DNA of 38,026 nt from positions 1-38,026 of the IMG/VR virus record IMGVR_UViG_3300029267_002855; one strand, given 5' to 3'. Below are positions 1-37,332 of this stretch, in pieces; the stretch's first letter is position 1, and every line of letters starts with the position of its first letter. Source of the stretch: a virus. The translations under genes were made by a program, and so were the position numbers. The notes under the pieces are model-generated. The model made no database searches, was not told where the DNA came from, and saw only the letters and a list, made by a program, of their open reading frames with translations.

Positions 1-144
1 CCTATTGCTCGTTACACATTCAAACGTAGATGAGGTATGCGATGATGTGAGGAATTGCGGTTGAACACTTGCTTCAACAAAATACCGAGCTGTAACAGGC
101 GCTGTGAAAGTATATGTGCCAGTATTAAAGTCACTATTTTGATC
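1..144. repeat. Window-terminal direct repeat, copy 1 (identical to 37883..38026); circular-assembly overlap or terminal redundancy
   Basis: Compared base by base: all 144 nt are identical to the last 144 nt of the window. A minus-strand frame crosses the junction without a stop. Confidence 0.95.
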
Positions 145-456
145 AAAAATCTCTTGGTTAAATTGAACTGTCCATGTACTCCCGTCACCCGTTACATTGT
201 TATAAGTCGTGCTCATTTCAACAAGTACTGCTGGCTGCAAGGGCATTGTTCGTTCACCATCCGATGTCATGATAAAAAAATCTGTAGTCCCTAAAGCTGA
301 CCCACTAGCAACTTTAAATTTATCCGAATCATCGTCGTCAACCCCCATGCGATATTTTCCAGTACCGTTTATACTGAATTGTGTAAAACTATCACCACTT
401 CCTGGATCTATAGTTATCGACCCACCCTTGTTATCTATACTATTTATTTTTGCCAT
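1..456 (-). CDS. C1q/TNF-like knob protein, paralog 3, N-terminal 152 codons (gene wraps the junction and continues at 37882..37679; 219 aa in total)
   Basis: ATG at 456..454, 8 nt after the stop of 465..1133. Hand translation MAKINSIDNKGGSITIDPGSG...MPLQPAVLVEM...EIFDQNSDFNTGTYTFTAPVTARYFVE...CVTSNR is in frame with TYLLSYVNPY... at the window end. It is collinear with the two neighbouring paralogs. Confidence 0.85.
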   Translation of the reverse strand, partial: MAKINSIDNKGGSITIDPGSGDSFTQFSINGTGKYRMGVDDDDSDKFKVASGSALGTTDFFIMTSDGERTMPLQPAVLVEMSTTYNNVTGDGSTWTVQFNQEIFDQNSDFNTGTYTFTAPVTARYFVEASVQPQFLTSSHTSSTFECVTSNR

Positions 457-464
457 CGCTACCC

Positions 465-1133
465 CTAAGCTACTAAAAACCCTTGTAAACACGTTGATAT
501 TGGAGATGAACCACCTATAATATCAACCACTTTTGATCCACCACTGGGTTGCTGCATAATCAACACACTTGTTGTTGCAGTATCAGACGCATCCATATCC
601 GCCAAACATGTAATCTTGAATACCTTTACCGTGCTTACAGAACAAACATACGGATTCATATGCTCACACATAAAAGTTCTATTGCTTGTATTTATATACG
701 CAACCACTACATCATGACTAGAGGTAAGCCCAGATGCTTCAATGGTTGCAGTTAGTAAATACCGGCCTGTTATCGGAGCGGTAAACGTGTCCGAAGCAAC
801 ACTGCTACTCTGATCAAATATGCTACTATCTACGTCGCATGTGTAATTTGTGCCGTCGCCCGTTACATTGCTATCAGTCGAGCTGTTATAATAGCTAAAA
901 GCTGGTTGTAAAGGCATTGTTATAGCACCATCGGTCGTCATTTTAAACGTGTCATTTGTGCCCAAACTTGAACCCTGGGAAAGCTTCAACATATCTGAAT
1001 CATCATCATCAATACCCAGTCGGAATTCCCCAGTTCCTCCAATATCGTATTGGACAAATGGATCTATCCCAGTCGATCCTTGATCCAATGTCAGCTCATC
1101 AGTCCAATTATTTATAGCATTTATTTTTGCCAT
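465..1133 (-). CDS. C1q/TNF-like knob protein, paralog 2 (putative distal receptor-binding protein)
   Basis: 222-aa ORF. Its N-terminus MAKINAINN..ELTLDQGS is shared with the neighbours. It carries a gC1q-type signature: LQPAFSYYNS, SSIFDQSS, FTAPITGRYLL. It is tightly packed with flanking genes. Confidence 0.8.
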   Translation of the reverse strand: MAKINAINNWTDELTLDQGSTGIDPFVQYDIGGTGEFRLGIDDDDSDMLKLSQGSSLGTNDTFKMTTDGAITMPLQPAFSYYNSSTDSNVTGDGTNYTCDVDSSIFDQSSSVASDTFTAPITGRYLLTATIEASGLTSSHDVVVAYINTSNRTFMCEHMNPYVCSVSTVKVFKITCLADMDASDTATTSVLIMQQPSGGSKVVDIIGGSSPISTCLQGFLVA

Positions 1134-1140
1134 ATTATTC

Positions 1141-1803
1141 CTATACTGCTAAATAGCCACAAAACCTCGTTACCATATCACCACCGCCTTCAACATCTAT
1201 CGTTTTGGTTCCCCCAGAAACTGTAAGCTGTACGTAGGCCGTGTCAGAGGCGTCCATGTCTGCAATTATCAACCCTTGATGCCCAAAGCCAGCAAGACTT
1301 CCGCTTATATCACACGTATCTGGATCACAATTATTTATAAGATAAGTTCTATTACTTGTGACTATACTGCATGAACTTCCAGTATGACCACTAATATCAT
1401 GTATCTTAATACTAAAAAACAGTACGTACCGGCCTGTGGTAGGGGCGGTGAAAACGCCCGTACTGGAATTATAGTCACTACCTTGATCAAATATTTCCGT
1501 GTTACATATTATCTGGTATGCCGTAGAGTCACCCGTTACATCGTTATCATCTGCTGAATTATACGCACTAAACGCCGGCTGTAAGCCAAACCTAGTCTCA
1601 CCTGTTGGCTCAGATGTCATAGCATTACTAGAGCCTAATGAACCACCAGTGCTAATATAAAATCTATCAACGCTACCATCAGGAGTTCCTAACACATATT
1701 TATTTGACGTGTTGATATCAAATTGTATCCTAGACTTCCCGCTACTTCCTTCGTCAATAGTCAGCTCTTGAGCCTTATTGTCTATGCTATTTACCTTAGC
1801 CAT
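1141..1803 (-). CDS. C1q/TNF-like knob protein, paralog 1 (putative distal receptor-binding protein)
   Basis: 220-aa ORF with MAKVNSIDNKAQELTIDEGS, LQPAFSAYNS, TEIFDQGSDYNSSTGVFTAPTTGRYVLFF, TSNRTY and ADMDASDTA. These are the same motifs, in the same order, as 465..1133. Confidence 0.8.
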   Translation of the reverse strand: MAKVNSIDNKAQELTIDEGSSGKSRIQFDINTSNKYVLGTPDGSVDRFYISTGGSLGSSNAMTSEPTGETRFGLQPAFSAYNSADDNDVTGDSTAYQIICNTEIFDQGSDYNSSTGVFTAPTTGRYVLFFSIKIHDISGHTGSSCSIVTSNRTYLINNCDPDTCDISGSLAGFGHQGLIIADMDASDTAYVQLTVSGGTKTIDVEGGGDMVTRFCGYLAV

Positions 1804-1811
1804 ACTTACTC

Positions 1812-4148
1812 CTACACAACTGTAAAGTTACCAACACTACTTGCCACTACCCAATCCGTATTAGCTGTAATACAAACCAATTTTATAGTCCCATACTGGA
1901 TATCAGCAGTAAGTGAGCCACCCGTTCCGGTTGTAGTTGAAGAGCCACCAAAGTGTACAGTCTCTCCAGCATTTTGAGCTATCTTAAATTTCCCTGCACC
2001 CTTACCAACAACTTCAACAACAGATCCTAAAGCTGCTGTGTCAGGTAAAGTTACCGTAACTAAACCAGCATTGTTTGCCACATACCCATTATCTACTGAA
2101 GCTGTCTGAGATGTTCCTGTTACTTCTGACCAAGTAATTCCACCACCGCTTGAAGCTGTAGATCCAAGTTCACCATTAGCATCAATAATAACAGTCTCTG
2201 TTGCGCCACCAGGAGTTACACCATGGATACCAGCTATGAAGCAACTATTTTGCTGCTTATTACCAGTGCCCTGCGTACCTATCCGTATAGTATTATTATC
2301 TCCTACTGTACCTGGATTATGAATTAATAAATTATCACTATCATTTGTTGTAAGAGCATTTCCACAACCAGATCCAATTGCTACATTATAACTTCCAGAT
2401 ACTAAAGCTGCATATGCTGACCCTCCAATACCAATATTATGACTACCTGTCGTTAAAGCTGCTGCACAATTAACACCAAAACACATATTGCTTCCCCCAG
2501 AAGTACACTTCCAAAGGGCCTGCGTTCCTAGTGCTGTATTGTAAGAACCATCTTGCAGATCTGACAATGAATTATAACCAATACTAACGTTGCTTTCGCC
2601 AGTCGTAAGAGCATCTAATGCATTAACACCAACTCCAACATTAAACCCATTCCCAGTTGTTGTGCCATTGCCAGCATTAAAACCAATAAATGCATTATTG
2701 GTACCATATGCATGAAAAAATCTTGTGCTATTTACTTCTATAACACCTTCAGACAATGCAGCATTAGTTGTCGGTAGATTTAAGTTTCCAGCAGTGATGG
2801 TCACATCTCCTGTTGTTGCAGTTAATCCCGTTCCTGCCGTAATTAAACCTTGAGATATAGGAGCCTTACCCCATTCATCTATAGTTTCAAGTGCTGCTTG
2901 AACATTAGTATCCGCTGCACTCAAAATCCAGTCAAAATTTGTTACATCTGTTAAGACTAATGAAGCAGTGTTAGTGCCTGAAGTTGTAGATCCTGAACCA
3001 ACTGTCTGTTTATCTATAATAACATCTACTATAGAGTTAGATGATTCGGAATATATTATATATCCAAGTCTTGCTAACTCTAGGTATGCTAGCTCACCTG
3101 ATGCCGATGCTGGATCTCCATTTGCAATTGCTGTTTGAGCAGAAGCTAAATTATTATATTCTGCTGTGTGCATCACTGAAAAATAAACAGGCGTTGAAGT
3201 ATTTAAATCGTCTTTAGATACATAAAGTTTATAGATACCAAATTTATTAGTATTTAAAGCTGTTGGTGTTCCTGCGTTATTATATTGTCCGGTAAATGTA
3301 TCACTTTGAGTATTCCTTGCCCATTTACCTGAGCCATTTGTATAGTACTGCTCCCATACAACTCCCACACCTGAGCTGTCCGGGATGTCCGTGTAAAGAC
3401 CATGATCAGAGAGCTCATCTGCTCCATTAATCTGAATCTTTTGTGTACCATTAAGAGTGATATTAGCGCCACCAGCATGATTTTCGATAACTATACCTGT
3501 TGTCTCATGTGCCCAATAAGAGGCTGCAACAGGAAAATCATATGGATGATTCTCTTTAACTGTTACCTGTATATTAGTACCTGAAGTAGAGTCACGCATA
3601 CACTCAAACAAGACTATATAATCCTGGAATGTCGCCAATGAAAATGTAGTTGTCTTGCCTATATTACCAGCACTATCAATATATATTAAATATGTATTAC
3701 CAGCTGTCATGCCTGTAACCGTCTGTGAACCTGCCCATGTGACAGGTACACCTTTAATGTATCCAGTGCCAGCCTCTAAAACAGTAAATTGCCCGAGTGT
3801 AGTATCATCATAATATGGTGAACCACCAGACCAACCCTCAAAACCTGTATCAGTTTTTAAGACATCATATGTATCTAACGTTGTACTACTTGCCGCTCCG
3901 GACGTTTGTAACGGGCCCGATCCCACAATGGAAAATGACCCACTAGCGGGTGTACATGTCCCTGAATCCGTAGTAATTGAAGTTGCTACAGCATCAAAAT
4001 TGATATTCCTATCATCTACCGTCCACGTACGAGTTGTCGCAGTTGTGATGCCAGATACATCATAAGTCAGAACCTTAGTGTTATCTGCATCATCCTTAAT
4101 ATCTAAACCGGTTGATGCATCATTAATACAATTCCTTACTGTCGCCAT
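1812..4148 (-). CDS. Long tail fibre (778 aa): shared N-terminal anchor, adhesin-head-like repeats, shared C-terminal knob
   Basis: The first 57 aa are identical to the 4379..5023 product. The middle has GxNxxAhG-type repeats (NTALGTQAL, NIGIGGSAYAAL, NVAIGSGCGNAL). CFIAGIHGVTPGG..IIDANGELG and the last ~105 aa are homologous to the C-terminus of 5033..6454. Confidence 0.8.
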   Translation of the reverse strand: MATVRNCINDASTGLDIKDDADNTKVLTYDVSGITTATTRTWTVDDRNINFDAVATSITTDSGTCTPASGSFSIVGSGPLQTSGAASSTTLDTYDVLKTDTGFEGWSGGSPYYDDTTLGQFTVLEAGTGYIKGVPVTWAGSQTVTGMTAGNTYLIYIDSAGNIGKTTTFSLATFQDYIVLFECMRDSTSGTNIQVTVKENHPYDFPVAASYWAHETTGIVIENHAGGANITLNGTQKIQINGADELSDHGLYTDIPDSSGVGVVWEQYYTNGSGKWARNTQSDTFTGQYNNAGTPTALNTNKFGIYKLYVSKDDLNTSTPVYFSVMHTAEYNNLASAQTAIANGDPASASGELAYLELARLGYIIYSESSNSIVDVIIDKQTVGSGSTTSGTNTASLVLTDVTNFDWILSAADTNVQAALETIDEWGKAPISQGLITAGTGLTATTGDVTITAGNLNLPTTNAALSEGVIEVNSTRFFHAYGTNNAFIGFNAGNGTTTGNGFNVGVGVNALDALTTGESNVSIGYNSLSDLQDGSYNTALGTQALWKCTSGGSNMCFGVNCAAALTTGSHNIGIGGSAYAALVSGSYNVAIGSGCGNALTTNDSDNLLIHNPGTVGDNNTIRIGTQGTGNKQQNSCFIAGIHGVTPGGATETVIIDANGELGSTASSGGGITWSEVTGTSQTASVDNGYVANNAGLVTVTLPDTAALGSVVEVVGKGAGKFKIAQNAGETVHFGGSSTTTGTGGSLTADIQYGTIKLVCITANTDWVVASSVGNFTVV

Positions 4149-4369
4149 TATTCATCCTCAACCTTAGAAGTTTCATACTCCCGCTCTTCCTTTTTAATCT
4201 TATCTTGTTCCTCAGGAGTAAAATCTATTTCAATACCTGTATGATTTTCAATTATTTGCTCAGCTATTTGCTCAACAACATTATCTTTTTTTTTAATTAT
4301 TATAGTTGTTATTGCACCTACAATAAGAGATACCCCTACAACTATTGCACCAACTATATTTAATCCCAT
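4148..4369 (-). CDS. Small single-pass membrane protein with an acidic tail (holin-like or fibre-associated; function unknown)
   Basis: 73 aa. One N-terminal TM helix (IVGAIVVGVSLIVGAITTIII) is followed by a K/E/D-rich tail. Its stop overlaps the next start (TAATG). Confidence 0.6.
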   Translation of the reverse strand: MGLNIVGAIVVGVSLIVGAITTIIIKKKDNVVEQIAEQIIENHTGIEIDFTPEEQDKIKKEEREYETSKVEDE

Positions 4370-4378
4370 AATTACTCC

Positions 4379-5023
4379 TTAAACAACGGTTAAATCAGTT
4401 CTACCACTTAATTGTGCCCATGTAGTATTCGCAACAACACACACTAACTCTAACGGCATAGACTTTCCAGATGTGGAACTATATGAAACTGAGCCTCCTG
4501 TACCAGTTGTACTTGTACCATTAGCTATAGTAATAATCTTTTGGCCAGCATTTTGAGTAACTGTAACTCCACTATGAGCAGTATAAGCAACAAGTCGTAA
4601 AATATCACCTACACTTGAAGTTGATGGTAATAATGGGCTTGCAGACCCTCCGCCACTAGCCGCTATATATCCAGTATTTACAACACCTGTAAATGGATAC
4701 GTTTGATCATCTATCCAATTGATCACACCACCAGAGCCACCAGTACTTGTCACAGTTATAGTGTCTGAACTAGCTGAGGTGGTCACTCCACCTGACCCTT
4801 CAATGGAAAACGTCCCACTGGCGGGTGTACATGTCCCTGAGTCAGTACCCACGGAAGTTGCTACAGCATCAAAATTAATATTCCTATCATCCACAGTCCA
4901 GGTTCGAGTTGTTGCTGTTGTAATACCTGAAACATCATAAGTAAGTACTTTTGTGTTGTCTGCATCATCTTTGATGTCTAGACCTGTTGATGCATCATTT
5001 ATACAGTTCCTTACAGTAGCCAT
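4379..5023 (-). CDS. Short tail fibre (214 aa): same N-terminal anchor as the 778-aa fibre, diverged copy of the shared C-terminal knob
   Basis: Residues 1-57 are identical in protein to 1812..4148. The C-terminus (..GY..LP.TSSVGD...TQNAGQKI...TGTGGS...LELVCVVANTTW...DLTVV) is collinear with the knobs of the 778- and 473-aa fibres. Confidence 0.8.
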   Translation of the reverse strand: MATVRNCINDASTGLDIKDDADNTKVLTYDVSGITTATTRTWTVDDRNINFDAVATSVGTDSGTCTPASGTFSIEGSGGVTTSASSDTITVTSTGGSGGVINWIDDQTYPFTGVVNTGYIAASGGGSASPLLPSTSSVGDILRLVAYTAHSGVTVTQNAGQKIITIANGTSTTGTGGSVSYSSTSGKSMPLELVCVVANTTWAQLSGRTDLTVV

Positions 5024-5032
5024 ATATATCTC

Positions 5033-6454
5033 CTATGCTACGGTTATATTTCCTTTAGATGTCAACAAAGTCCATGTTGTATCTGCTACAGTACACAAAA
5101 CCTCTACTGCGTCATAATCATCTGTAGACTCTAGATATCCAGTAGCTCCAACCGTTGTTGCCGTAGCTTCATCCCAAATAATCTGCTCACCAGCATTTTG
5201 AGCAAGCTTCCAGCCACCACCACCTTTACCACAAATACGTACAATTGATCCTAAAGCTGCTGTATCAGGCAGTGTTACAGTTACTTGTGCTGCATTATTT
5301 GTTATATAGCCACTATCTACAGCGGCCGCTTGAGTTGTTCCTGTAACTTCTGACCAAGCAAGTCCCGTGCTACCTGTATATGAAATTGTAATAGTACCAG
5401 CACCATTGGCTATTCCTATGTCGGCTCCTGCGGTCAGTGTTGCAAGTACTTGATTTGCCCCGGTTGATCCAATTGGGATTTGTCCATTGGTTGCAGCACC
5501 TAATGTACCTAATTCACCATTAGCATCAATTATAGCTGTTTGTGCCACAGCTCCTGGAGTTACACCATGAATACCAGCTATAAAGCAACTATCTTGCTCT
5601 CCTGCACCTGATCCTTGTGTTCCGATATGTATTGTGTTGTCTTCACCTAACACCCCATCATTGGAAATGCAAATATTTGATGACTCTGCCCCAGTATAAT
5701 TAATACCAGAACCGGACCCTATGGCAACATTCAGATCTCCAGTTGTAAGCGTTGACAATACTGGCGTTCCCATACCAACATTTAATGAGCCTGTTGTAAT
5801 ATTTTCACCTGAATAACTACCAATCATAGAGTTAAAATTTCCTGTAGTGGTGTCTGTCAAACTATTAAAGCCTAAACAAGTATTATCTCTTCCAGTAGTA
5901 AGCACGCTTCCACTATTGATACCAAAAAATGTATTTCGAGTACCTAAATTATGCATAAACAATAAGCCGCCAATACGCCACACACCTTCAGTAAATGCCA
6001 CATTTGTAACAGGCATACTAAAGTTTCCACCAGTTGACACACTGCCTGGAAAGTCTGGAGCAATTAAACTAAGATCCTGATCGCACATTGTCAAAGTACG
6101 AGTATTTCCTGTTGTAATCTGATCACACTGGATAGCAAACAACTTACTATTATCACCATCATCATATACTCTAAATACATCATCTTGAAATGTTGGACCT
6201 ATACCAGCCCCGACGGCACTAATAGTAATCGAACCAGGAGCATCAAGTATATTGATATTTGCGCCAGCAGTTAGGTTTGCTAATACTGGATCGTTTCCAG
6301 CACTTCCGATAGGCAAAACTCCGTCACCAGCAACAGCTAATGAAACTAACGAGCCATCAGCCGCACCAACTAATAAAGCATGCTCCGTGGCACCTGTTAA
6401 ATTAGTAATATCTAGGGTTCCAGTAAAATCAGATCCAAATATAATCTGTGACAT
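5033..6454 (-). CDS. Tail fibre (473 aa) with adhesin-head-like repeats and the shared C-terminal knob
   Basis: It has NTFFGINSGSVLTTGRDNTCLGFNSL.. repeats. CFIAGIHGVTPGA..IIDANGELG and WSEVTGTTQAAAVDSGYITNNAAQVTVTLPDTAALGS..AQNAGE..GNITVA match 1812..4148. The G.hPIGS.G..PVLA.LTAG..I module occurs twice. Confidence 0.8.
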   Translation of the reverse strand: MSQIIFGSDFTGTLDITNLTGATEHALLVGAADGSLVSLAVAGDGVLPIGSAGNDPVLANLTAGANINILDAPGSITISAVGAGIGPTFQDDVFRVYDDGDNSKLFAIQCDQITTGNTRTLTMCDQDLSLIAPDFPGSVSTGGNFSMPVTNVAFTEGVWRIGGLLFMHNLGTRNTFFGINSGSVLTTGRDNTCLGFNSLTDTTTGNFNSMIGSYSGENITTGSLNVGMGTPVLSTLTTGDLNVAIGSGSGINYTGAESSNICISNDGVLGEDNTIHIGTQGSGAGEQDSCFIAGIHGVTPGAVAQTAIIDANGELGTLGAATNGQIPIGSTGANQVLATLTAGADIGIANGAGTITISYTGSTGLAWSEVTGTTQAAAVDSGYITNNAAQVTVTLPDTAALGSIVRICGKGGGGWKLAQNAGEQIIWDEATATTVGATGYLESTDDYDAVEVLCTVADTTWTLLTSKGNITVA

Positions 6455-6462
6455 AATACCCC

Positions 6463-6837
6463 CTATATAACTCTATATGAAGACGATATTGTAACCAATC
6501 CAGCTGTAGGATCTGTTCCCGCAACAAGTGACTTAACATAAAACTGAGTACCCTTAGGAAATACTATACCATTTGCAGCAATATCAGTCACAGATCCACC
6601 ATTACTTTTAACTGGAAAATGATCCTCTACACCGTCTAAACTTACCCATAAATTAGCATCGCTAAAATTATATACTGAATCAATCCGACATGGATGATCT
6701 AATGGTGTACCAACAGCAACATAAACACCCGCAACAGGAGTTACCGCAGTATCTAAAGTTCTTGCTGGCTCCATCCACCCACGTTCGGCTGATTGAAATG
6801 TATATGCATTCATATTATTCCTTAAAGTGGGCGCCAT
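6463..6837 (-). CDS. Hypothetical beta-rich virion-module protein
   Basis: 124-aa ORF packed between two fibre genes. No motif recognised. Confidence 0.5.
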   Translation of the reverse strand: MAPTLRNNMNAYTFQSAERGWMEPARTLDTAVTPVAGVYVAVGTPLDHPCRIDSVYNFSDANLWVSLDGVEDHFPVKSNGGSVTDIAANGIVFPKGTQFYVKSLVAGTDPTAGLVTISSSYRVI

Positions 6838-6858
6838 AAAGACGCCCTTTAATTAAAT

Positions 6859-9321
6859 TTAAGCAGCAATTATCCAGAACGTAAGTATCAAATCACTTGC
6901 AAGAGCAGCTGCACCATTATTTTTATATGTAACGGTAAACGAACCTGCCAATGGACGCACTTTTTGTATTGTACACTGAGCATCTTCTGCTCCAACACTA
7001 GCAAGAGTACACAATATTGCTGAACCAACTGTACATACTGCATTTGTAACTGTTAAGACTTGTGTACCAGCTGCGGCGGTAACCAACCCGGTGAAAGTAC
7101 CAACACCGACGTTTGCATTGACTGTAACAGCGGCTGCTGCCTGTGTATCTGTAGCCGGAACCATGTCGACTATACCATCAGCATCAAGAGTAAGACCTCC
7201 TGTACCAGCTTGAATAAGTGTATCTGTCGCACCAGTTTTATTGGAAATAATTACGTTTTTGGCAGTAGCATCAGCCCCTATAGAGATAGCTCCAGTTCCC
7301 GTTTGCATGGTAAATGCACCGTTAACACTATCTACAGTAAAGCCACCCGTTCCATAATCAAAATCAAAACCACCAGCAGCATTCGAAGCATTCAATCTTA
7401 TAGAGTTAGCAGCTGCAAGACCAGAAGTCACAACAACTCCACCTACATCAGATGTTACAGCAATAGAAGCCGCACCTGTTCCTTGATCTGCGTGCAATCT
7501 AAGAGTCTCATTGACTCCCCCATTTGTGTGAAGGTAAATTGCGTCCGCTGCATCTTCAGTAGCTGTAATTGTTGTAGAGCCTAATGTAGAGTTAAGTGCA
7601 ATATCTCCGGTTCCAGAGTTCAAGGTACATGAGGATGCACCATTAACAGCACCTATCACGATATCTTTAGCAGTTGCATCAGCCCCTATATTAATATCAC
7701 CTGTACCAGAGACTAAACCAATCTCACTATTAGTAGCCGTTAATATGATGTTTCCGGTTCCAGCGTTGAAGGCCAATGCATTCGCACCTACAATATTACC
7801 TATAGTTGTCGTACGTTCACCTTGGGTGCCAATATTAATAGCAAAATCGTTATCATCATTTCCGACATTTAATGTTCCAGCTGTCGAATTTAAGGAAACA
7901 TTTCCAGTAGCATCAATATCCACTGTTCCTGTACTTGTAATACTCGTATTTCCGGTTCCAGACTGCAAGATTGTCGATGCCGCTCCTGAGGTCGAACCTA
8001 CGGTTACGGCGTGTACGGCGGCATCAGCGCCTATATTCACATCACCTGTTCCAGAGATCAACGATATGTCAGAGTCTGTAGCCGTCATTACAATGTTTCC
8101 GGATCCAGCGTTGAAAGCCAATGCATTTGCACCTACGATATTACCGATTGTTGTCGTACGCTCACCTTGAGTGCCGATATTAATAGCAAAATCATTGTCA
8201 TCATTTCCGACATTTAATGTTCCGCCAGTTGAGTTAAGAGACACGTTTCCTGCTGCATCAGCATCTATTGTTCCGGTGCTTGTAATCGATGTATTCCCGG
8301 TTCCTGATTGTAGTGTTGCTGAAGAGGTTGTATTTGTGCTGCCCAATATTGTGTCATGAGCTGTAGCAGATGTACCAAACTCAGCGTTTCCGGTTCCTAC
8401 GTTACATGTAATCGATGTCGTTCCTGTAACGTTACCTATCACGATATTTTTTTGTGCAGCATCAGCCCCCAAGTTGATTGCTCCAGTGCCCGTTTCAAGG
8501 TTAAATGGACCATTAGCACCAGTTACAGCAAAGCCTCCTGTACCAAAATCGCAATCAATACCACCAGCAGCATTTGAAGCATTTAATATCAATGCATTAT
8601 TTGCAGCTCTGCCAGAATTCATATTAACTGAACCAACATCTGAGGTTAATGTTAAAGAGTTATTACCTGTCCCTTGGTCAGATCTGATGCGGATGGTCTC
8701 ATTGACCCCCCCATTTGCCCTTAGGTAAATGCAGTCCCCTGCATCTTGATCTGATGTAATCGTACAAGTTCCTGATGTCATCGTAAAATCTACACCAGCA
8801 GTAACAGCTCCTCCAGCATCAAGATCTCCAACAAGTGTAACATTATCATCTAGGTTGAACGTTACGGCATTTGCCGCCCCTGTACTTCCAATGTTTGTGC
8901 CCCCAATCATTTGGGTCACCCCTGCCAGAGGTGCAGCATTCCCAGCGTCCGTTTGGTACTGAGCCGCTTGTGCACCAACTACAGATAACGTAATTGTTCC
9001 TGCGCCTTCAGCTATACCAATAGACCCATCTGTACCTAAGTTTGCCCATACAGGCGTCAAACCAGTTCGAGCTATGTAGAGCTGTCCGTCGGTGCCATCA
9101 GGCGTAGGATCTGCAACAACAGACCATGTAGCTTGTGGAGGACTACCAGATATCAATGTCAAAATAAAATAATTACCAGTTAACCTATTGAGCCACGGTC
9201 TAGCAAGACTAGTAATATCATCGCCAGTTGGGTCTCTATCATAAATTAAAGCACCTTTTTCATTTTCAATTAATGGCTGTGAAAAGCCATACGAAATTTC
9301 AGGATATTCTTTAATGGCCAT
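6859..9321 (-). CDS. Repeat-rich beta-helix-like fibre/spike (820 aa)
   Basis: G/T/A/N-rich. It has nested internal repeats A(193-300)-B(327-441)-B'(442-556)-A'(591-698). The N-terminal ~60 aa are non-repetitive (a possible tail-attachment domain). It is the first gene after the ejection-protein block. Confidence 0.75.
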   Translation of the reverse strand: MAIKEYPEISYGFSQPLIENEKGALIYDRDPTGDDITSLARPWLNRLTGNYFILTLISGSPPQATWSVVADPTPDGTDGQLYIARTGLTPVWANLGTDGSIGIAEGAGTITLSVVGAQAAQYQTDAGNAAPLAGVTQMIGGTNIGSTGAANAVTFNLDDNVTLVGDLDAGGAVTAGVDFTMTSGTCTITSDQDAGDCIYLRANGGVNETIRIRSDQGTGNNSLTLTSDVGSVNMNSGRAANNALILNASNAAGGIDCDFGTGGFAVTGANGPFNLETGTGAINLGADAAQKNIVIGNVTGTTSITCNVGTGNAEFGTSATAHDTILGSTNTTSSATLQSGTGNTSITSTGTIDADAAGNVSLNSTGGTLNVGNDDNDFAINIGTQGERTTTIGNIVGANALAFNAGSGNIVMTATDSDISLISGTGDVNIGADAAVHAVTVGSTSGAASTILQSGTGNTSITSTGTVDIDATGNVSLNSTAGTLNVGNDDNDFAINIGTQGERTTTIGNIVGANALAFNAGTGNIILTATNSEIGLVSGTGDINIGADATAKDIVIGAVNGASSCTLNSGTGDIALNSTLGSTTITATEDAADAIYLHTNGGVNETLRLHADQGTGAASIAVTSDVGGVVVTSGLAAANSIRLNASNAAGGFDFDYGTGGFTVDSVNGAFTMQTGTGAISIGADATAKNVIISNKTGATDTLIQAGTGGLTLDADGIVDMVPATDTQAAAAVTVNANVGVGTFTGLVTAAAGTQVLTVTNAVCTVGSAILCTLASVGAEDAQCTIQKVRPLAGSFTVTYKNNGAAALASDLILTFWIIAA
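7654..8343 (-). repeat. In-frame tandem duplication, 2 x 345 nt (115 aa), inside the 820-aa fibre gene
   Basis: tttccggttccagcgttgaaggcc at 7751 recurs as tttccggatccagcgttgaaagcc at 8096, an offset of 345. The protein copies GNTSITSTGT..NVGNDDNDFAINIGTQGERTTTIGNIVGANALAFNAG are near-identical. Confidence 0.9.
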
Positions 9322-9335
9322 TAAATACTCCTAAA

Positions 9336-9554
9336 TTATTTTTTAAACCAATTATAAACTCTATTATACAAACTCTTAATTTTAGGAACTGCTAGTTTTG
9401 TAACTACACCTCCAACTATAGATCCTATAACAAGACCCACTTTGCCTCTATGATTTTTTGCTAACGAACTATTAGCAACCTTATCTTCAATCCTATCCAA
9501 AATGCATGCGTTCAATGAAGAACACAAAAATATTGTTAATAATACTTTTTTCAT
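9336..9554 (-). CDS. Small lipoprotein with a glycine-zipper helix
   Basis: MKKVLLTIFLCSSLNAC provides a signal peptide plus lipobox (L-N-A-C). A GLVIGSIVGGVV segment follows. 72 aa. Confidence 0.7.
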   Translation of the reverse strand: MKKVLLTIFLCSSLNACILDRIEDKVANSSLAKNHRGKVGLVIGSIVGGVVTKLAVPKIKSLYNRVYNWFKK

Positions 9555-21007: not shown

Positions 21008-21949
21008 TTAAGTAAATGGACCTGCATCGGTCGTACCAGCTCTCCAATGTATAACATCATCTTCAGCTCCAGCAGGACCAGCAGCAGCAGTAGCGCCAGC
21101 CTTAAGCTCAAAACCTCTGAATGAATTGTTAGTAATTGGACCACTAATAGGCACAACTTGAGCATACGTTGGCAAGGTTACACCAGTCAATGGGAACGCA
21201 AATGCCGTATATGTAGTTGTGTTAAGATCAACTGTAATGGTATTTACTGTATCAGATGTTGTCTTTGCAAGCACCTCAACAGTTTTATCATTAGCCTCAA
21301 GCATACCAAATGTTTCTGGCACCTTAAGTTTAACCTTATCACCAACCTCAAAGCCATGAGCCACACTCATTGTAATAACAGCCTGAGCAGCCTGTGTAAT
21401 GTTAGTAATAAACCTTACACCTGGATACCAAACTTCAGGATATTTTACCTTATAAAAGGAACCTGTTGTTCCTGCTACAATTGTAGCCATAAACGGTAAA
21501 CTAAATGTTGTTCCGTTTAAATTCGTTATAGTAAAATCCATGCCATTCAATTGAGTAGCACCTGTTACACTAACAAATCTAACAATATCACCTGTAAGAT
21601 ATGTTGTAGCATCTGTAACAGTTACTTGTGGTGGCGTATCCGCACTCACTGCCGTCACAGTAGCATCCTTAGCACTTAAAGGATTATCATTAGTATTTAT
21701 TGCCGTAATACCTGTAGCAGCTAACAATGCTTGTGGAACCACAGCATCTATAGTTGCCTCACGCACATCACCAACACCATATTGATAGTTACCAGTCATA
21801 TTGGTATCCCAATATGATGTACACAATGTAGCATTAGTTGCCGTACGTATCTTTGTTAGGTTACGAATTTCAATCCAATCTGCACCAATAGGTACTTCCA
21901 AATATTTATCCTTACCGTCTGCGGTAAAGTATCCTTGTATTGTAGTCAT
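21008..21949 (-). CDS. Abundant-type structural protein after the MCP (decoration or head-fibre candidate), 313 aa
   Basis: T/V/A-rich beta protein. It has two similar segments (GDIVRFVSVTGATQLNGMDFTIT and GDKVKLKVPETFGMLEANDKTVEV). It lies immediately downstream of the capsid gene. Confidence 0.5.
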   Translation of the reverse strand: MTTIQGYFTADGKDKYLEVPIGADWIEIRNLTKIRTATNATLCTSYWDTNMTGNYQYGVGDVREATIDAVVPQALLAATGITAINTNDNPLSAKDATVTAVSADTPPQVTVTDATTYLTGDIVRFVSVTGATQLNGMDFTITNLNGTTFSLPFMATIVAGTTGSFYKVKYPEVWYPGVRFITNITQAAQAVITMSVAHGFEVGDKVKLKVPETFGMLEANDKTVEVLAKTTSDTVNTITVDLNTTTYTAFAFPLTGVTLPTYAQVVPISGPITNNSFRGFELKAGATAAAGPAGAEDDVIHWRAGTTDAGPFT

Positions 21950-21958
21950 ATTATCTCC

Positions 21959-22900
21959 TTACGATACTAGTAATGTTGCACGAGATCTTACCATATACGA
22001 CTCATTAAGGATCCTAGCAGCTTGTACCCATTTAACAGCACAAGTAAAGTTCTGACGTAGTGGATCAATTGGCGGATTGTAAAGGAACTCTGCATTGCCT
22101 TCAAGCTTAACTCTTATAGCACAATCTTTTGCTATAGTAATTATATTATATACTGTATTATCATTAACTGATTTAGCTGTATCTATAGAGCCTTGAGAGG
22201 ATACAAAGAACCTTGTATTATGTACATATCCATCTTCGGAGTTCAATATTCCATCTTGATTTGAATATTGAATTTTTTGAACATAATTAGGTATCATACG
22301 CAAATCATTAATGAGGTCTGTATGACATAATGCAAAATACGAATCACCTATTGGAGATGTTCCGTATTTATTTGTTCCAGTTTTACCACTAGAGATCCTC
22401 TTACCATCTGCACTACGCAAGGTTGTGTATGTCTTAGCAATATCAGCCGCAGTAATATTGGTAGGTTTATCACCATTAGTTCCATAGACACAGTCTTGGA
22501 ATGATGCAACACTTGCCAATACATCCCTGATGATTATATCATCAGTTTCTTGTGCAAATACACCAAGTTTTTCAGATGCAATATTTAATACAGGATCTTC
22601 ATTGGTTAATACAACCTGCTCATTCATAGGTATAAATGTACCATACCACTGTACCGGGGTTACAAGATCAACTTTATTAAGCAATTGACCTTTAGGTGTA
22701 GCACCCATATCACCAAGAGGTGTTTTATCTGGTACTAGTGGATCATACATACTATAAACAATTTGTTTACTATGGTTTCTGGGCAAAACTCTAGTTTCCA
22801 GCCCAATTCCATAGATTAAATCTCTAGTTCGAGCTTCAATCAACTTATAGCCATACATCTTAGCTACAGCTGGTTTCAAGTTATTTGTAGTTTGTAACAT
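21959..22900 (-). CDS. Major capsid protein, HK97-fold (N4 gp56-like family by motif pattern)
   Basis: 313 aa. The pattern LIYGIGLETRVLPRNHSKQIVYSMYDPL...TPLGDMGATPKGQLL..VDLVTPVQWYGTFIPMNEQV...LGVFAQETDDIIIRDVL matches that family as I recall it. It follows the scaffold gene. Confidence 0.75.
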   Translation of the reverse strand: MLQTTNNLKPAVAKMYGYKLIEARTRDLIYGIGLETRVLPRNHSKQIVYSMYDPLVPDKTPLGDMGATPKGQLLNKVDLVTPVQWYGTFIPMNEQVVLTNEDPVLNIASEKLGVFAQETDDIIIRDVLASVASFQDCVYGTNGDKPTNITAADIAKTYTTLRSADGKRISSGKTGTNKYGTSPIGDSYFALCHTDLINDLRMIPNYVQKIQYSNQDGILNSEDGYVHNTRFFVSSQGSIDTAKSVNDNTVYNIITIAKDCAIRVKLEGNAEFLYNPPIDPLRQNFTCAVKWVQAARILNESYMVRSRATLLVS

Positions 22901-26285: not shown

Positions 26286-28433
26286 TTAAATCAATCCTGG
26301 AGGCATTCCTCCACCCATCTGTCCCGGATCAGGTTCCTGCATTGGTGGCTGCCCTTGCATCTGTGTAGGGTCTTGCATTTGTGCTGGATCCTGCATTTGT
26401 GGTCCCAGATCTTGTGGTGGCAAGTCAGCTTGATTAGCAACGTTGTCCATCTCAGTACTCTGAATCGCCATATCTCTATTTTGTTGTATCATATTCAACA
26501 ATTCAAGTAATTCATCAATACGATTTGGATCAGCTTGCTCTAGCTCTTTAAGTGTTTTTATTGTTTCAGTATTGGTTTTTTGTTCCTCTCTTGAAGATTC
26601 AGCACTCTTATACAGCATGTTGAACTTATCAAGTTTGATTTCACTAGCACGTTTTTTAGCTAGAGATGAATCAGATTCAGCACGAGCATTAATCATATTT
26701 GTGGTTGCTTGTTGTTCCATGAGATCTGACTTAAGTCGCATTTGTTCCATCTCATCAGTTTTTTTATTTTGCTGCTCAATAGCCTGTACCAAGTTCTTTT
26801 TGTTCTGTAATGGAGCTGCTTCTATGATCACGCTATCAGGAATCTGAATACCCTCTTTACGTAGATTAAGTAATTGACCGAACTCGTTTTGTCTTTGATT
26901 AATCGTGTCAAATCCTTCAGAGATAACAATGTCAAACTTGGAAAACAACTTAGTATAAAACTGTGCATGTGGCTCTTCATTGATGATACGTTTAACCTTG
27001 CTGGGAGCATAATTTTTTTGTATAAGCTGAACTATGGAAGTACCTAAAAGCTCCATCGAGCCTTCAAGGTTGTCGTATAATGTTTGCAGAGTGGTTACCC
27101 CTTGAGCCTGTCTCATCCTCGCTCTCATACCAGATATATCGTCATCAGCGAAGCCCAATAATTCCTCATTAACACCAGATATTTGTTGAATTTCATCAGC
27201 AAGCATCTGTGATAATTGTGTAAACGATTGTGGAATATCTATTGGAGGTATCGGTGCAATATCTGCAAGCTCATAACCTCTCTTAACAATTATAGGTCTA
27301 CCATCTCCAGCCCTTATGATTGAGTCTGGATCTTTTAATGCGCCCTCTTTAGCAATAAAGCCAGAGTTAGTTCTGGATTCTGCTAAATTGTATTCAATTA
27401 CTTTCCGACGATTATATAGATATTGTACGTCTCTTAAACCACGCACAACACCTTGAATCTTTAAGGAAAAATCTGCAACATCTGGATGGAAATATCCAAA
27501 CACTGGTATGAATGGATAACTATCTAGTCCTAGGGGATTCACATCGTCGTACATAACTTTGCCGTTAACTAATAAGGCAAGCTTAACCGTAGGTACCATG
27601 GTTTCCAGCACCTTGATCTCTGGTGCAAACTTTAAAAACTGCTCCAGTGCATCATCATCACCATCCCACTCAATTACCTCATTTGTGTTGGGATCGACTA
27701 ACTGCTTTTGCTTACGATAGTCACGATAATAAAACTCATCATACGCCATCAAATTTTGACTAGCGGTAACGCTTTCAGGCATATAATTGAACTTTCCATC
27801 CCCCCTAAAGGTTTCCATCTCCTCAATCTCTCTACGCTTATTTGGTATCAGTGAAGCACATGCATCTCTTGGCATGTATGATCTTTTCCATATAGCGTTA
27901 CAGTCAGATAGATCTTTTTCCCTAAAGTACGGATCAATGATAATACTACTATGGCCACAATTGCTTAATTTAATATCTCCTGAAATTGGATCATTCCTAT
28001 AATCAACATAAAGTTGAATGAAGTTAATTCCAGATATAATCGCACCTTCAAATGCATCTGATATAATCGTTGATGCTCTTGATGTTTTAAATACAGATGC
28101 TAACAGCTTACTTGTTTGATCAGCTGCATCTTGATCACTGCCCTCTTGAGGTGAGGCCAATAACGCTCTACGCTCACGTCGCTGAAACCCAGAGATTAAA
28201 TTAATATTACGTTTTATCCTATTGCAGGTAAAACTTTGCCTTGTTTTTAACGGCACATTGTATAATTCAGACCATAAAGTTTGATCACCAGCATTAAAAC
28301 GAACGTCAATAGCTGCTTCGTCTTGATATTCCTGGTTCATCATTGTTACGTCAGTATGGAATTTCTCTATCCTCTGTTTTACGGCTATATCTTTTTCATC
28401 GAAATAAATACTATTTTCAGGAAATAAAGCCAT
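26286..28433 (-). CDS. Portal protein (P22 gp1-like)
   Basis: 715 aa, downstream of terL. The N-terminal third is collinear by eye with P22-type portals (..RIKRNINLISGFQRRERRALLASPQEGSDQDAADQTSKLL..). It has a long helical, Q-rich C-terminal extension like the P22 barrel. Confidence 0.8.
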   Translation of the reverse strand: MALFPENSIYFDEKDIAVKQRIEKFHTDVTMMNQEYQDEAAIDVRFNAGDQTLWSELYNVPLKTRQSFTCNRIKRNINLISGFQRRERRALLASPQEGSDQDAADQTSKLLASVFKTSRASTIISDAFEGAIISGINFIQLYVDYRNDPISGDIKLSNCGHSSIIIDPYFREKDLSDCNAIWKRSYMPRDACASLIPNKRREIEEMETFRGDGKFNYMPESVTASQNLMAYDEFYYRDYRKQKQLVDPNTNEVIEWDGDDDALEQFLKFAPEIKVLETMVPTVKLALLVNGKVMYDDVNPLGLDSYPFIPVFGYFHPDVADFSLKIQGVVRGLRDVQYLYNRRKVIEYNLAESRTNSGFIAKEGALKDPDSIIRAGDGRPIIVKRGYELADIAPIPPIDIPQSFTQLSQMLADEIQQISGVNEELLGFADDDISGMRARMRQAQGVTTLQTLYDNLEGSMELLGTSIVQLIQKNYAPSKVKRIINEEPHAQFYTKLFSKFDIVISEGFDTINQRQNEFGQLLNLRKEGIQIPDSVIIEAAPLQNKKNLVQAIEQQNKKTDEMEQMRLKSDLMEQQATTNMINARAESDSSLAKKRASEIKLDKFNMLYKSAESSREEQKTNTETIKTLKELEQADPNRIDELLELLNMIQQNRDMAIQSTEMDNVANQADLPPQDLGPQMQDPAQMQDPTQMQGQPPMQEPDPGQMGGGMPPGLI

Positions 28434-29058: not shown

Positions 29059-30462
29059 TTAATAATTTGGTTTATTCGGATCTTCAAACATGTGAGGTAG
29101 TCTTTTTCTGCCGTACATAACTTTTTGATATCTCTCCTCGTCCTCTCGGGTATCACCTACATCAGCTTCAATTAAATCAATCGATAAACATAGATACCTT
29201 AAGCAGTCTGCCCAATCATTGGCCCAAGTCTCACTATCTTTAGTAGCAAATACTTTGTTAATGGGATCCCACTTACGACTATAGTTTTGAAGAGCATTAA
29301 GCAGGGTTGGACATTTTTCCTCATCAATAAACAATCTATTAAATTTATGTTTGGTAACCTCAATACCTGTAGCAAGCGCTGACTTATGCAAAACATGCAT
29401 ATCAATACCAAGATTCCTAAAGATGCCAAGCCTTGATTCACCTCTAGTTTGATCATGCTTCACTGCATCATGTGGGCAAAAATGATCCCCATAAAAATAC
29501 TTATGATTAATCTCGTGTGAACGCAGCATAGCCACTAAGTCAGAGATCTGCGCATTATATGCATGGAAGGAATTAATAATAGCGATCTTGGATCCTATCA
29601 CCTGATAAAATAGGAACACACTTGGAGATCTCCAACCAAGATCACAAACAGTATAAACTTTATGCATAGGATCATGAGGTACAAAGCCAACACGTTTTTC
29701 AGCATATGCCATCTTTAAGTTATTAGCGTAGTATGTACCGAAGTTAGCAATCTCAAAGCTGCAATAATATTCCTGAAGGAACAGCTCCTCAGACATTTCA
29801 AGCTTCTCTTTTTCCAACGCTTCAGCACTAATATGCTTGGTATCTTCTACAGTTAGTAAACAAGTGAACCAATCTTTAGACTTTAATGCATTTTTGTAGA
29901 TATAGTAAAAATCATTGTAGCCTTTAGGTGTTGATATGAAAACAACCCAACCGTCATTTGCCGCTAATATAGGTCTCATCAAGCTAAATGCCATTGGATT
30001 ATTTTGTGATGCATACTCAGAGTACACAATGCCAACTGGGTTAGTTCCTAAAAGAGCCTCAATATTATCTGATCCATTAAATTGCAAGTAGCTTCCATTG
30101 ATGAACTTGATCTTCATCTGGGTATTATTAATATTTTCAATAAGGTCATCAGGAATAAACGAGAGGAACTTCTCACCTGTTATAAGTATCGAATCCCAAA
30201 TAGCCTTGCGGCACTGCGAGTATTTTGGGAAAAGATAGTAGTAAGTCCCCACACGTAAAAAAGCTTGCCGTATGATCAAATTTAGAGCTGCTACGTCCTT
30301 ACCCGCTCTACGAGGCCATATCACTACAAGGTTCCTAAATTTATCAACCTCTAACGCCTTAATTAAATCGATCTGATAAAACCGGGGCTTAAACTTATCA
30401 ACACGTACTAGTTTTGATTGTTTATCTAGTTCGTTTTTATTTATAGGCACTAGAGGTTTCAT
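29059..30462 (-). CDS. terL: Terminase large subunit
   Basis: Start moved to M20 (GGAAGG, then 5 nt, then ATG at 30462). It has a Walker-A-like WPRRAGKD and Walker-B-like GIVYSEY. RNaseH-like nuclease motifs are present: VCDLGW, FCPHDA, NDWADCLRYL. Confidence 0.9.
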   Translation of the reverse strand: MKPLVPINKNELDKQSKLVRVDKFKPRFYQIDLIKALEVDKFRNLVVIWPRRAGKDVAALNLIIRQAFLRVGTYYYLFPKYSQCRKAIWDSILITGEKFLSFIPDDLIENINNTQMKIKFINGSYLQFNGSDNIEALLGTNPVGIVYSEYASQNNPMAFSLMRPILAANDGWVVFISTPKGYNDFYYIYKNALKSKDWFTCLLTVEDTKHISAEALEKEKLEMSEELFLQEYYCSFEIANFGTYYANNLKMAYAEKRVGFVPHDPMHKVYTVCDLGWRSPSVFLFYQVIGSKIAIINSFHAYNAQISDLVAMLRSHEINHKYFYGDHFCPHDAVKHDQTRGESRLGIFRNLGIDMHVLHKSALATGIEVTKHKFNRLFIDEEKCPTLLNALQNYSRKWDPINKVFATKDSETWANDWADCLRYLCLSIDLIEADVGDTREDEERYQKVMYGRKRLPHMFEDPNKPNY

Positions 30463-30463
30463 A

Positions 30464-30694
30464 TTAACCTTCCGCTTTACAACTCTGATCGTGTATGATG
30501 TAAGACTCTGATACGACATTCACATTACATTGATCACAGTAAAAACTATATTCAATTTTACGATCCCAGTCCTCACGTGGATCAAGACGATCTAGCTCAT
30601 CAGGACTAAAGTCTTTAAGTGAAGCATCACTACACATCATCTCAGTGCTGCATCTAGGACATAACATTGTAATTACACTACCTTTAATCTTCAT
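30464..30694 (-). CDS. Zinc-ribbon protein (76 aa)
   Basis: CPRC ... CDQC pairs, with an acidic middle. Its stop lies 1 nt upstream of the terL start. Confidence 0.6.
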   Translation of the reverse strand: MKIKGSVITMLCPRCSTEMMCSDASLKDFSPDELDRLDPREDWDRKIEYSFYCDQCNVNVVSESYIIHDQSCKAEG

Positions 30695-31018: not shown

Positions 31019-31039
31019 ACGCCGTTATCCGCTTATCTA

Positions 31040-31112
31040 TGACCCTGAGGGGAATTGAACCCACTGTTTTTGCCGTGAAAGAGCAATGTCCTCACCATTA
31101 GACGACAGGGCC
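31040..31112 (-). tRNA. tRNA-Glu (anticodon UUC)
   Basis: A 73-nt cloverleaf folded by hand. Acceptor GGCCCTG/CAGGGTC, D stem GTCT/GGAC, anticodon stem TTGCT/GGCAA, loop CTTTCAC (U33, UUC, A37), T loop TTCAATT. It resembles bacterial tRNA-Glu. No CCA is encoded. Confidence 0.88.
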
Positions 31113-31118
31113 AACATT

Positions 31119-35828: not shown

Positions 35829-35838
35829 GGGTAATAAT

Positions 35839-36648: not shown

Positions 36649-36657
36649 TTCATATCC

Positions 36658-36684
36658 GGGGCGTTGCCTCAGCGGTAGCGCCCT
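36658..36684 (+). other. GC-rich 10-11 bp stem-loop between erf and the next gene (no U tract)
   Basis: GGGGCGTTGCC-tcagc-GGTAGCGCCCT, including G:U pairs. It is followed by ataagttcaAGGAGtcataATG. Confidence 0.5.
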
Positions 36685-36703
36685 ATAAGTTCAAGGAGTC
36701 ATA

Positions 36704-37326: not shown

Positions 37327-37332
37327 AGGGGG

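Follow-up and report, generated by a model that had tools for sequence, protein, structure and literature searches.

Modular exchange of fibre tips and phages with several receptor-binding proteins are both textbook knowledge. Among the closest described systems, HTVC010P-like pelagiphages carry putative C1q receptor-binding proteins beside their tail fibre, and read recruitment set a conserved N-terminus against a variable C1q domain, as in the family studied here; the same study noted that the tail fibres of pelagiphages contain YadA-like domains (Mizuno et al. 2014, PMC3909814). C1q-type proteins also occur in cryoconite phages (Bellas et al. 2020, PMC7468147) and C1q modules, together with S74 and lectin modules, in the fibres of contractile injection systems (PMC12923769). 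Attachment of one such protein to another is known from phages CBA120, where the tailspikes TSP1-3 attach to TSP4, and G7C, where gp63.1 attaches to gp66 (PMC8825819), and in cyanopodophage A4 six fibre trimers sit at the adaptor-nozzle junction (PMC12002296). Here we describe a block of fibre-type genes in the IMG/VR virus record IMGVR_UViG_3300029267_002855, whose full 38,026 nucleotides (nt) were analysed and are called the window below. We read this block as a host-recognition module in which seven fibres are put together from interchangeable modules and recombination re-sorts the tips, and we give this reading a probability of about 0.7. C1q-type phage tips and modular exchange of receptor-binding proteins are already established, and current views are not overturned by this locus.

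The window resembles HTVC010P-like and other uncultured marine and freshwater phages in having a C1q head by the tail fibre, a genome in the range of about 35-40 kb, probably of short-tailed type, and a variable 'island'; its nearest BFVD structures are proteins of this very kind. Unlike HTVC010P-like phages, it has three tandem standalone C1q copies and a second family of tips. A close relation to HTVC010P itself was considered and rejected, as only the C1q-like motif of its tail fibre gp27 matches, found solely by hidden Markov model (HMM; E 1e-9). In the HTVC010P genome (our locus L113, 19876-22984), gp27 is followed by three tandem paralogues of about 210 amino acids (aa), gp30-32, which parallel the tandem genes of the window and belong to a different family.

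With CBA120 (TSP1-4), G7C (gp63.1 and gp66) and T4 (gp9 and gp10), the window shares tandem receptor-binding proteins with conserved N-terminal and exchangeable distal parts, and its C-terminal domain C105 can be likened to domain XD1 of CBA120 TSP4 and T4 gp9/gp10 (PMC8825819). In the window, unlike in CBA120, the XD1-like domain comes last and is no part of an N-terminal hub, no XD2 or XD3 was detected, small knobs take the distal place of enzymatic beta-helix tailspikes, and the genome measures 38 kb, not 157 kb. Fibres of extracellular contractile injection systems likewise combine a conserved N-terminal anchor with exchangeable C-terminal modules, including C1q and Peptidase_S74 (PMC12923769), but their machinery and anchors are different; the link is one of analogy or of shared module pools.

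Composition of the fibre block

The block consists of nine minus-strand genes, and the open reading frames (ORFs) named in an earlier, sequence-only reading of this DNA (the original prediction) are all present on that strand at the sizes it gave. Its estimate that about a quarter of the genome is fibre genes is borne out, since the seven fibre-type genes sum to 8,859 nt (23.4%) and the entire block amounts to 25.1%. That nearly every gene is fibre-like holds for seven of the nine genes, the exceptions being p124 and the small membrane protein p73. The genes and their modules are as follows (proteins are named by length; module limits of the fibres come from domain HMMs, for p473 together with an AlphaFold2 model):

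6859-9321, minus strand: p820, 820-aa repeat protein, fibre- or spike-like; class-I connector aa 1-76, G.hPIG unit aa 76-114, nested repeats A-B-B'-A' aa ~189-704, C-terminal domain aa 711-820 (nt 6862-7191)
6463-6837, minus strand: p124, conserved small protein, always next after the p820-like gene
5033-6454, minus strand: p473, long fibre with 'MSQ' N-terminus (class II); G.hPIG-type unit aa 14-86, 'DD.DNTK..TRT.T' module aa 88-146, 17-residue repeat region aa 150-319 including the neck CFIAGIHGVTPG aa 290-301 (nt 5552-5587), G.hPIG unit aa 321-361, C105 tip aa 366-473 (nt 5036-5359)
4379-5023, minus strand: p214, short fibre; class-III N-terminal module aa 1-63 (nt 4835-5023), diverged C105 tip aa 101-214 (nt 4382-4723)
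4148-4369, minus strand: p73, 73 aa, one N-terminal transmembrane helix and an acidic tail, not a fibre
1812-4148, minus strand: p778, long fibre; class-III N-terminal module aa 1-63 (nt 3960-4148), 345-aa middle module aa 96-440, 17-residue repeats and neck aa 461-665, C105 tip aa 671-778 (nt 1815-2138)
1141-1803, minus strand: C1q-like protein 1 (C1q_220), 220 aa; N-terminal beta module aa 1-76, gC1q jelly-roll aa 77-220
465-1133, minus strand: C1q-like protein 2 (C1q_222), 222 aa; family HMMs c1qN and c1qC, PHROG 15750
1-455, minus strand: C1q-like protein 3 (C1q_219), 219 aa, 5' part, running on across the circular junction
37679-38026, minus strand: C1q-like protein 3, 3' part, of which 37883-38026 duplicates 1-144

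Three of the fibre proteins end in C105, a domain of about 108 aa, and the three tandem proteins of about 220 aa carry a C1q-type head; the predicted set of fibre-type proteins with two distal-domain families is supported. In an all-against-all blastp comparison, p473 aa 141-472 and p778 aa 452-777 are 39% identical (E 2e-73), p214 aa 1-120 and p778 aa 1-131 are 69% identical with their first 57 aa the same, and at its C-terminal domain p214 aligns with both p778 and p473 at 24-31% identity (E 1e-14 to 1e-19). Over the last ~108 aa, identities among p473, p214 and p778 span 24-52%, and any two of the C1q-like proteins share 39-48% identity (E 1e-45 to 1e-60).

The modules inside these proteins are shared as well. 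The neck motif CFIAGIHGVTPG is exact in p473 (from aa 290) and p778 (from aa 636), and an HMM of the G.hPIG module matches p473 aa 321-361 and p820 aa 76-114; since this module is also homologous to p473 aa 42-79 (hhalign probability 97%), it occurs twice in p473 and again in p820. The 57-aa identity, the exact neck and the G.hPIG module thus confirm that modules are shuffled between fibres, and this sharing is far beyond chance. At the DNA level, fibre genes share stretches that are 73-83% identical. Besides the tips and connectors, the module set comprises as shafts the G.hPIG units, the 'DD.DNTK..TRT.T' module, the 17-residue repeats ending in an IRIGT..CFIAGI neck and the 345-aa module of p778.

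We hypothesize that the fibres, which would presumably be trimers, are held on the tail or on each other by the short N-terminal connectors, and that the distal XD1-like and C1q tips would bind host surface structures, probably glycans. Recombination at module borders, mainly at the conserved neck, might then swap tips and shafts among co-circulating relatives, whereby one particle or lineage would show several specificities and change them fast. That the proteins enter the virion, form trimers, bind receptors and are displayed at the same time is, in this scheme, inferred, as is any branching.

Tips, shafts and connectors

The distal domain of the three tandem proteins is confirmed, in profile searches and in a predicted structure, as a genuine C1q jelly-roll, in line with the label C1q-like in the original prediction. 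C1q_220 matches Pfam C1q (PF00386) with 29.0 bits against a cut-off of 23.7; C1q_219 reaches 15.5 bits, under the threshold of 23.7, C1q_222 has no Pfam C1q match of its own, and about a quarter of the members of this C1q-like family carry a precomputed PF00386 match. Weak PDB sequence matches connect C1q_220 to the C1q domains of EMILIN-1, cerebellin and caprin-2. Its AlphaFold2 model, built with 80 homologues, has a mean predicted local distance difference test score (pLDDT) of 84.9, with aa 80-220 mostly above 90, and the top 38 Foldseek matches of this model in the PDB are gC1q domains (E down to 6.5e-9; template modelling (TM) score on target 0.64-0.84), including caprin-2, C1QL1-3, the NC1 domains of collagen VIII and X, C1q and adiponectin. 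A search of BFVD gave as closest structures 'C1q domain containing protein [uncultured Caudovirales phage]' and proteins annotated as tail fibres, of which some align over all 220 aa at TM 0.82.

The A4 tail fibre (9k09_A) is also among the matches of this model. In that protein, gp24, a stem links the N-terminal domain, which binds the tail, to a jelly-roll binding domain at the C-terminus (PDB 9k09; PMC12002296), and the jelly-roll superposes on the C1q-like model with a TM of 0.50 on the query at 12% sequence identity; unlike the window, A4 has one fibre gene, and its stem is alpha-helical. No Gly-X-Y run of a classical collagen stalk is present in the three C1q-like proteins, where aa 1-76 form instead a conserved beta-strand module. 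Among 80 family members these N-terminal 76 aa average 72% identity, against 43% for the C1q head. A tblastn search of GenBank phages, HTVC010P included, with a C1q-like protein gave no match.

The second tip, C105, belongs to no Pfam or PHROG family. In the AlphaFold2 model of p473 (mean pLDDT 82.8; 94-97 over the repeats), aa 365-473 form a compact domain of about 11 strands with a pLDDT of 95-97. The top six Foldseek matches of this model in the PDB are the N-terminal part of CBA120 TSP4 (E 3e-5, 116-118 columns), with T4 gp10 and CpaA lower down, and the list also includes a phage 'capsid spike', 9ny6. TSP4, T4 gp10 and CpaA share XD1, a mixed beta-sandwich of about 100 residues (Chao et al., PMC8825819). 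Moreover, the best PDB sequence match of the C105 profile, marginal at E 0.35, is TSP4 aa 91-126, which lies inside XD1 and covers the conserved motif GY..N..G..TV.LP....GD, and single C105 members show weak matches to T4_gp9_10_N and StcE_b-sandwich. Because the Foldseek matches of the XD1 group and the TSP4 profile match agree, we assign C105 to this fold: by model and profile it is most likely the XD1 beta-sandwich of T4 gp9/gp10 and CBA120 TSP4.

In its position C105 departs from these relatives. It lies at the extreme C-terminus of all three window proteins, p473, p214 and p778, and not at the N-terminal site between anchor and XD2/XD3 that is typical of XD1. An exhaustive profile search found 9,145 representative metagenomic protein clusters that match C105 at E<=1e-3, and in nearly all of the best 150 of these, from proteins of 153-1,406 aa, it makes up the last ~108 residues. 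Proteins of only 133-189 aa, with N-termini that are collagen-like or of other kinds, also terminate in C105. Among 50,697 GenBank phage records, only one hypothetical protein carries it, in Microcoleus phage My-WqHQDG, again C-terminally. The term 'knob' used earlier for this domain calls for correction. XD1 is so far known from assembly regions of branched tailspikes and from glycan-binding modules, the latter in CpaA and StcE (PMC8825819), so that a receptor-binding role of C105 is for now a presumption.

The shafts of p473 and p778 contain a Gly/Asn-rich repeat region with one short strand per 17 residues, modelled with a pLDDT of 94-97 in p473. In tblastn searches this region matches 'virion structural proteins' of S-PM2 and Syn1 and tail fibres of pelagiphages and roseophages at 37-45% identity over about 100 aa, and a 'virion structural protein' of S-RIM44 is also among the matches. 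The repeats are thus like those of marine fibres labelled YadA-like or FhaB-like, namely of S-PM2 and Syn1 and the tail fibres of HTVC111P, Kolga, CRP-831 and Venkman, from which p473 and p778 differ in having no Pfam YadA match, a 17-residue period and different tips. YadA head and neck profiles gave no Pfam match at E<=0.1 for either protein, and no YadA structure is among the Foldseek matches of the p473 model; the likeness to YadA is one of repeat style only. The repeat region of p473 and p778 also matches PHROG 6002/4636 (tail spike and virion structural protein families), and p473 has 371 homologues. PDB sequence searches with p473, p778 and p820 returned nothing meaningful.

The 345-aa middle module of p778 (aa 96-440), for which no family match was found, could be an enzymatic or a lectin domain. 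It recurs in at least 15 related loci, where it stands before repeat regions, C105 or C1q.

The largest protein, p820, is built on nested repeats with a 9-11-residue hydrophobic period. Its inner tandem DNA repeats (7676-7965 and 8021-8310, minus strand) are 80% identical and its outer ones (7256-7488 and 8447-8679, minus strand) 71%. In the closest relative (locus L005) the homologue has 921 aa, is 92% identical over 708 aa and contains an extra repeat, and varying numbers of repeats give homologues of 700 to 963 aa. No Pfam, PHROG or PDB match was found, an 18-sequence profile run against PDB and Pfam was also empty, and relatives outside the clade to which the phage belongs were not detected. 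Given the repeats and the lack of Pfam or PDB relatives, the earlier description of p820 as beta-helix-like is plausible but unverified: the repeat pattern is there, and no family or structure match stands behind it. We also considered whether the number of p820 repeats tracks the number of small fibres and rejected this, as the two do not agree in L001 (a second relative), L005 and the window.

Two small genes accompany the fibres. p124 is 100% identical to its copy in L005 and is represented by 56 ORFs across 79 related loci, with no family match in Pfam or PHROG. Copies of p73 that are 80% identical occupy the same position in L001 and L005, and 33 ORFs of this kind occur in related loci; with its predicted membrane helix p73 resembles a holin, and among the genes of this genome no endolysin was recognised.

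The fibre N-termini of the clade appear to fall into three recurrent classes, a division drawn from reading of the N-termini and from a rough pattern match under which most ORFs stayed without a class. The p820-type connector is found in one gene of the window and in relatives also heads C1q fibres of about 450 aa, an 'MSQ' type heads the long fibre that follows p124, and an 'MA[TK].N[SA]I[ND]' type is common to five proteins, namely p214, p778 and the three C1q-like proteins. Between p214 (4853-5023) and p778 (3978-4148), both on the minus strand, the first 57 codons differ at 26 synonymous and no nonsynonymous sites, indicating very strong purifying selection, as would be expected if both proteins fit the same partner. 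The synonymous divergence of the two DNA copies may, in addition, make it rarer for recombination between them to delete the intervening genes.

The 57-aa segment had been called an anchor. Its sharing between p214 and p778 is upheld, and its extent as a connector is narrower. The core 'DD.DNTK..TRT.T' also occurs internally in longer fibres (in protein P0059 and at p473 aa 88-146, among others), which leaves the extreme N-terminus of about 30 residues, similar to the N-termini of the C1q-like proteins, as the only candidate connector. This resemblance is only suggestive (hhalign probability 51%, E 1.5e-4, 31 columns, for the first ~30 residues of the C1q-like proteins against p214/p778), as is that between the anchor and the internal 'anchor-like' module (probability 21%).

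Exchange among relatives and alternative readings

For comparison, we scanned with module HMMs 79 IMG/VR loci fetched with the C1q-like family, together with two closer relatives. The usual order in these loci is a p820-like gene, p124, an 'MSQ' long fibre, p73 and one to three standalone C1q-like genes; some add two or three C1q-ended fibres of about 450 aa, and some reach six C1q-bearing genes. The layout of the window is therefore typical of a large uncultured clade with genomes of about 33-42 kb. The original prediction had not recognised the combination; it is standard in this clade, and C1q putative receptor-binding proteins beside tail fibres were published in 2014 (PMC3909814).

Within this order the distal parts change. 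In L001 the p778 homologue ends in C1q, and in one fusion a C1q head follows immediately on the N-terminal module of p214/p778. L005 encodes a 206-aa fibre with a tip that shares 72% identity with that of the window's p473, a p778 homologue of 347 aa that lacks aa 1-447, two C1q-like proteins and a 213-aa orthologue of p214 (72%). Across p473 homologues the C-terminus alternates among C105, C1q and a Peptidase_S74 chaperone. Between the window and L005, DNA identity is 87-93% over the tail genes upstream of the block, over p820 and p124 and on to about aa 290 of p473. At the protein level p473 is 95-100% identical to its L005 counterpart before the CFIAGI neck and 25-50% directly after it, and this collapse marks the neck as a recombination junction. 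Relatives thus keep N-termini and gene order and exchange shafts and tips at sharp breakpoints, the pattern of a modular receptor-binding-protein cassette, and the swappable host-range cassette suggested earlier is supported by this comparison across related contigs. The suggestion of a local triplication is not. For each of the six tips, counterparts in other genomes, often on different scaffolds, reach 60-83% identity, against 31-52% for its paralogues in the same genome, so that the apparent triplication represents co-resident, old, horizontally mobile lineages rather than local duplication.

Because of the link to TSP4, a hyper-branched apparatus is an attractive alternative, in which the XD1-like C105 domains would be docking platforms and the small C1q-like proteins, perhaps with the short fibres, would plug in via their N-termini. 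A short tail offers only six or twelve sites, and there are seven kinds of fibre to place; the closest solved structure to C105 is the assembly region of CBA120 TSP4, five proteins share one connector class under strong constraint, and standalone C1q-like genes nearly always co-occur in the clade with a C105-ending fibre. However, the partner-binding domains of TSP4 and T4 gp10 are XD2/XD3, XD1 cannot bind a trimeric partner on-axis, and the same fold binds glycans in CpaA and StcE (PMC8825819). C105 is, moreover, always the last domain, even on proteins of 133-189 aa, as expected of a distal tip; its counts per locus do not track those of the C1q-like genes, some loci having C1q-like genes and no C105; and Pfam, PHROG, PDB-sequence and Foldseek searches of the block, the last with the model of p473, yielded no match of XD2/XD3 type. 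On balance we regard branching of this kind as unlikely, and it is a decidedly long shot that C105 domains are sockets for the 'MA[TK].N[SA]I[ND]' small fibres and not receptor binders. If they were, a 38-kb phage would build a hyper-branched adsorption organ, with a plug-and-socket pair shared by thousands of uncultured phages.

The number and placement of the small proteins admit further readings. In complement C1q, the A, B and C chains form a heterotrimeric head, and the three tandem C1q-like proteins might similarly co-assemble into one head, giving one fibre instead of three. Their tandem genes, near-equal lengths and related N-termini would suit this, as would the three copies in locus L010, which are the best matches of the window's three in the same order. 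We nevertheless see only a slight chance of it, because two copies per locus predominate (20 loci, with three copies in six loci and one in six) and because a clustering of 64 standalone C1q-like genes gave no position-specific clades and in two loci grouped paralogues by genome; the same C1q domain also ends long single-gene fibres. Some of the small C1q-like or short C105 proteins could instead decorate the capsid, form head fibres or be non-structural, since their placement on the tail is itself deduced, the capsid of A4 bears a carbohydrate-binding cement protein (PMC12002296), and the 'capsid spike' 9ny6 is in the Foldseek list of p473. This we consider very unlikely, as their genes lie at the end of the tail and fibre run away from the capsid genes, their N-terminal module and tips interchange with those of long fibres bearing tail-fibre-type repeats, and homologous C1q domains end proteins annotated as tail fibres. 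That repeats between fibres produced a chimeric contig and inflated the number of fibre genes is scarcely credible. The 73-83% identical DNA stretches could mislead an assembler, and some independent contigs do break inside p778. Yet the same p473 protein is found on six independent contigs from different samples and assemblers, two of these contigs (ENA ERZ27256770 and JGI 3300017989) have their genes in the order of the window, beginning with the tail genes before the block and reaching as far as p778, inside which both end, the contig closes on itself, and relatives have the same order. Six contigs with p473 and two with the same order show that the block is not a chimera, the outcome that had been named as a possible refutation.

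Several points weigh against our preferred reading of the block as a host-recognition module with exchangeable tips. The presence of the seven proteins in the virion is deduced from sequence, fold and comparative pattern. The Foldseek output for the p473 model gives no aligned query residues, and the XD1 match was assigned to C105 (aa 366-473) through the size of the domain, its pLDDT and the E 0.35 hit. In its best-studied settings, T4 gp9/gp10 and TSP4, XD1 is an internal spacer of assembly regions and not a receptor-binding tip. p820, p124 and the 345-aa module of p778 belong to no recognisable family, and the roles given to them are therefore guesses. The podovirus morphology, finally, is deduced from gene content.

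As far as our searches reach, three aspects are undescribed: C105 as a widespread, strictly C-terminal tip of XD1 type, the scheme of three connector classes, and seven fibre genes in less than 38 kb as the norm of an uncultured clade. The block thereby offers a parts list for host recognition in a very abundant uncultured clade, comprising connectors, shafts, a recombination-prone neck and two tip families. In C105, with about 9,100 clusters and no Pfam entry, the XD1 fold has apparently been re-used in a new position. More generally, the module boundaries show where chimeric fibres might be cut and joined, and which domains to model or express in a search for receptors and hosts.

Genomic setting

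Bases 1-144 are identical to 37883-38026, and with this 144-bp terminal overlap the contig closes into a circle of 37,882 bp. A long minus-strand late operon runs in the order terminase, portal, major head protein, several unassignable large proteins and the fibre block. The features outside the block are:

31039-31113, minus strand: tRNA-Glu, anticodon TTC, inside the late operon
29059-30519, minus strand: terminase, in the late operon
26286-28433, minus strand: P22-like portal, in the late operon (Pfam P22_portal PF16510, E 1e-72)
21959-22900, minus strand: major head protein, in the late operon
37373-37669, minus strand: 98-aa ORF after the C1q-like genes, with homologues in L001, L002, L004 and L005
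37344-37364, minus strand: terminator-like hairpin with T-run, a consensus match only
37308-37320, plus strand: second terminator-like hairpin, back to back with the first

The hairpin at 37344-37364 closes the late operon and so makes the fibre block its 3' end. Together the two hairpins (37308-37364) mark the convergence of this operon with the plus-strand early genes (35448-37138), among which lies a gene for an Erf-type annealing protein (35839-36648). The 98-aa ORF follows the C1q-like genes in every relative and might be an assembly factor; in L005 (15274-16188) there are three genes of about 100 aa, two of them homologous to it.

Judging by the P22-like portal and the lack of detectable tube, sheath and tape-measure genes, the phage is probably short-tailed (podovirus-type). 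No tube, sheath or tape-measure family was detected among the genome's proteins, most tail genes match nothing, and PDB searches with the 706-aa and 330-aa proteins of the tail region, aimed at podovirus morphology, found nothing. The podovirus type given in the original prediction is likewise a deduction from gene content.

The core proteins are 22-37% identical to those of any isolate, and a megablast search of GenBank phages with the fibre block gave no match; the phage belongs to a large environmental clade of genomes of about 33-42 kb that has no cultured member. Contigs of this clade of about 35 kb (L089-L112) have been binned into metagenome-assembled genomes of, among others, Kosmotogaceae, Simkaniaceae, Ignavibacteria, Promethearchaeota and Scalindua. 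As these phyla are unrelated, the contigs are almost certainly mis-binned phage, and host assignment from genome assemblies was rejected as uninformative. One match lies inside a 6.7-Mb Latescibacterota chromosome and could be a prophage.

Two further ORFs of the late operon region drew our attention. Beside the major head protein, a 313-aa ORF (21008-21949, minus strand) matches Pfam E1_FCCH, the FCCH domain of ubiquitin-activating enzyme E1, over aa 107-152 with 38.3 bits against a cut-off of 29.5. Such a match is unusual for a phage structural module, and the protein may be a capsid decoration protein. Between the gene for a 1083-aa protein and p820, a 72-aa ORF (9336-9554, minus strand) that is 92% conserved in L005 starts with MKKVLLTIFLCSSLNAC, a lipoprotein signal peptide and lipobox, and could encode a spanin-like or exclusion lipoprotein.

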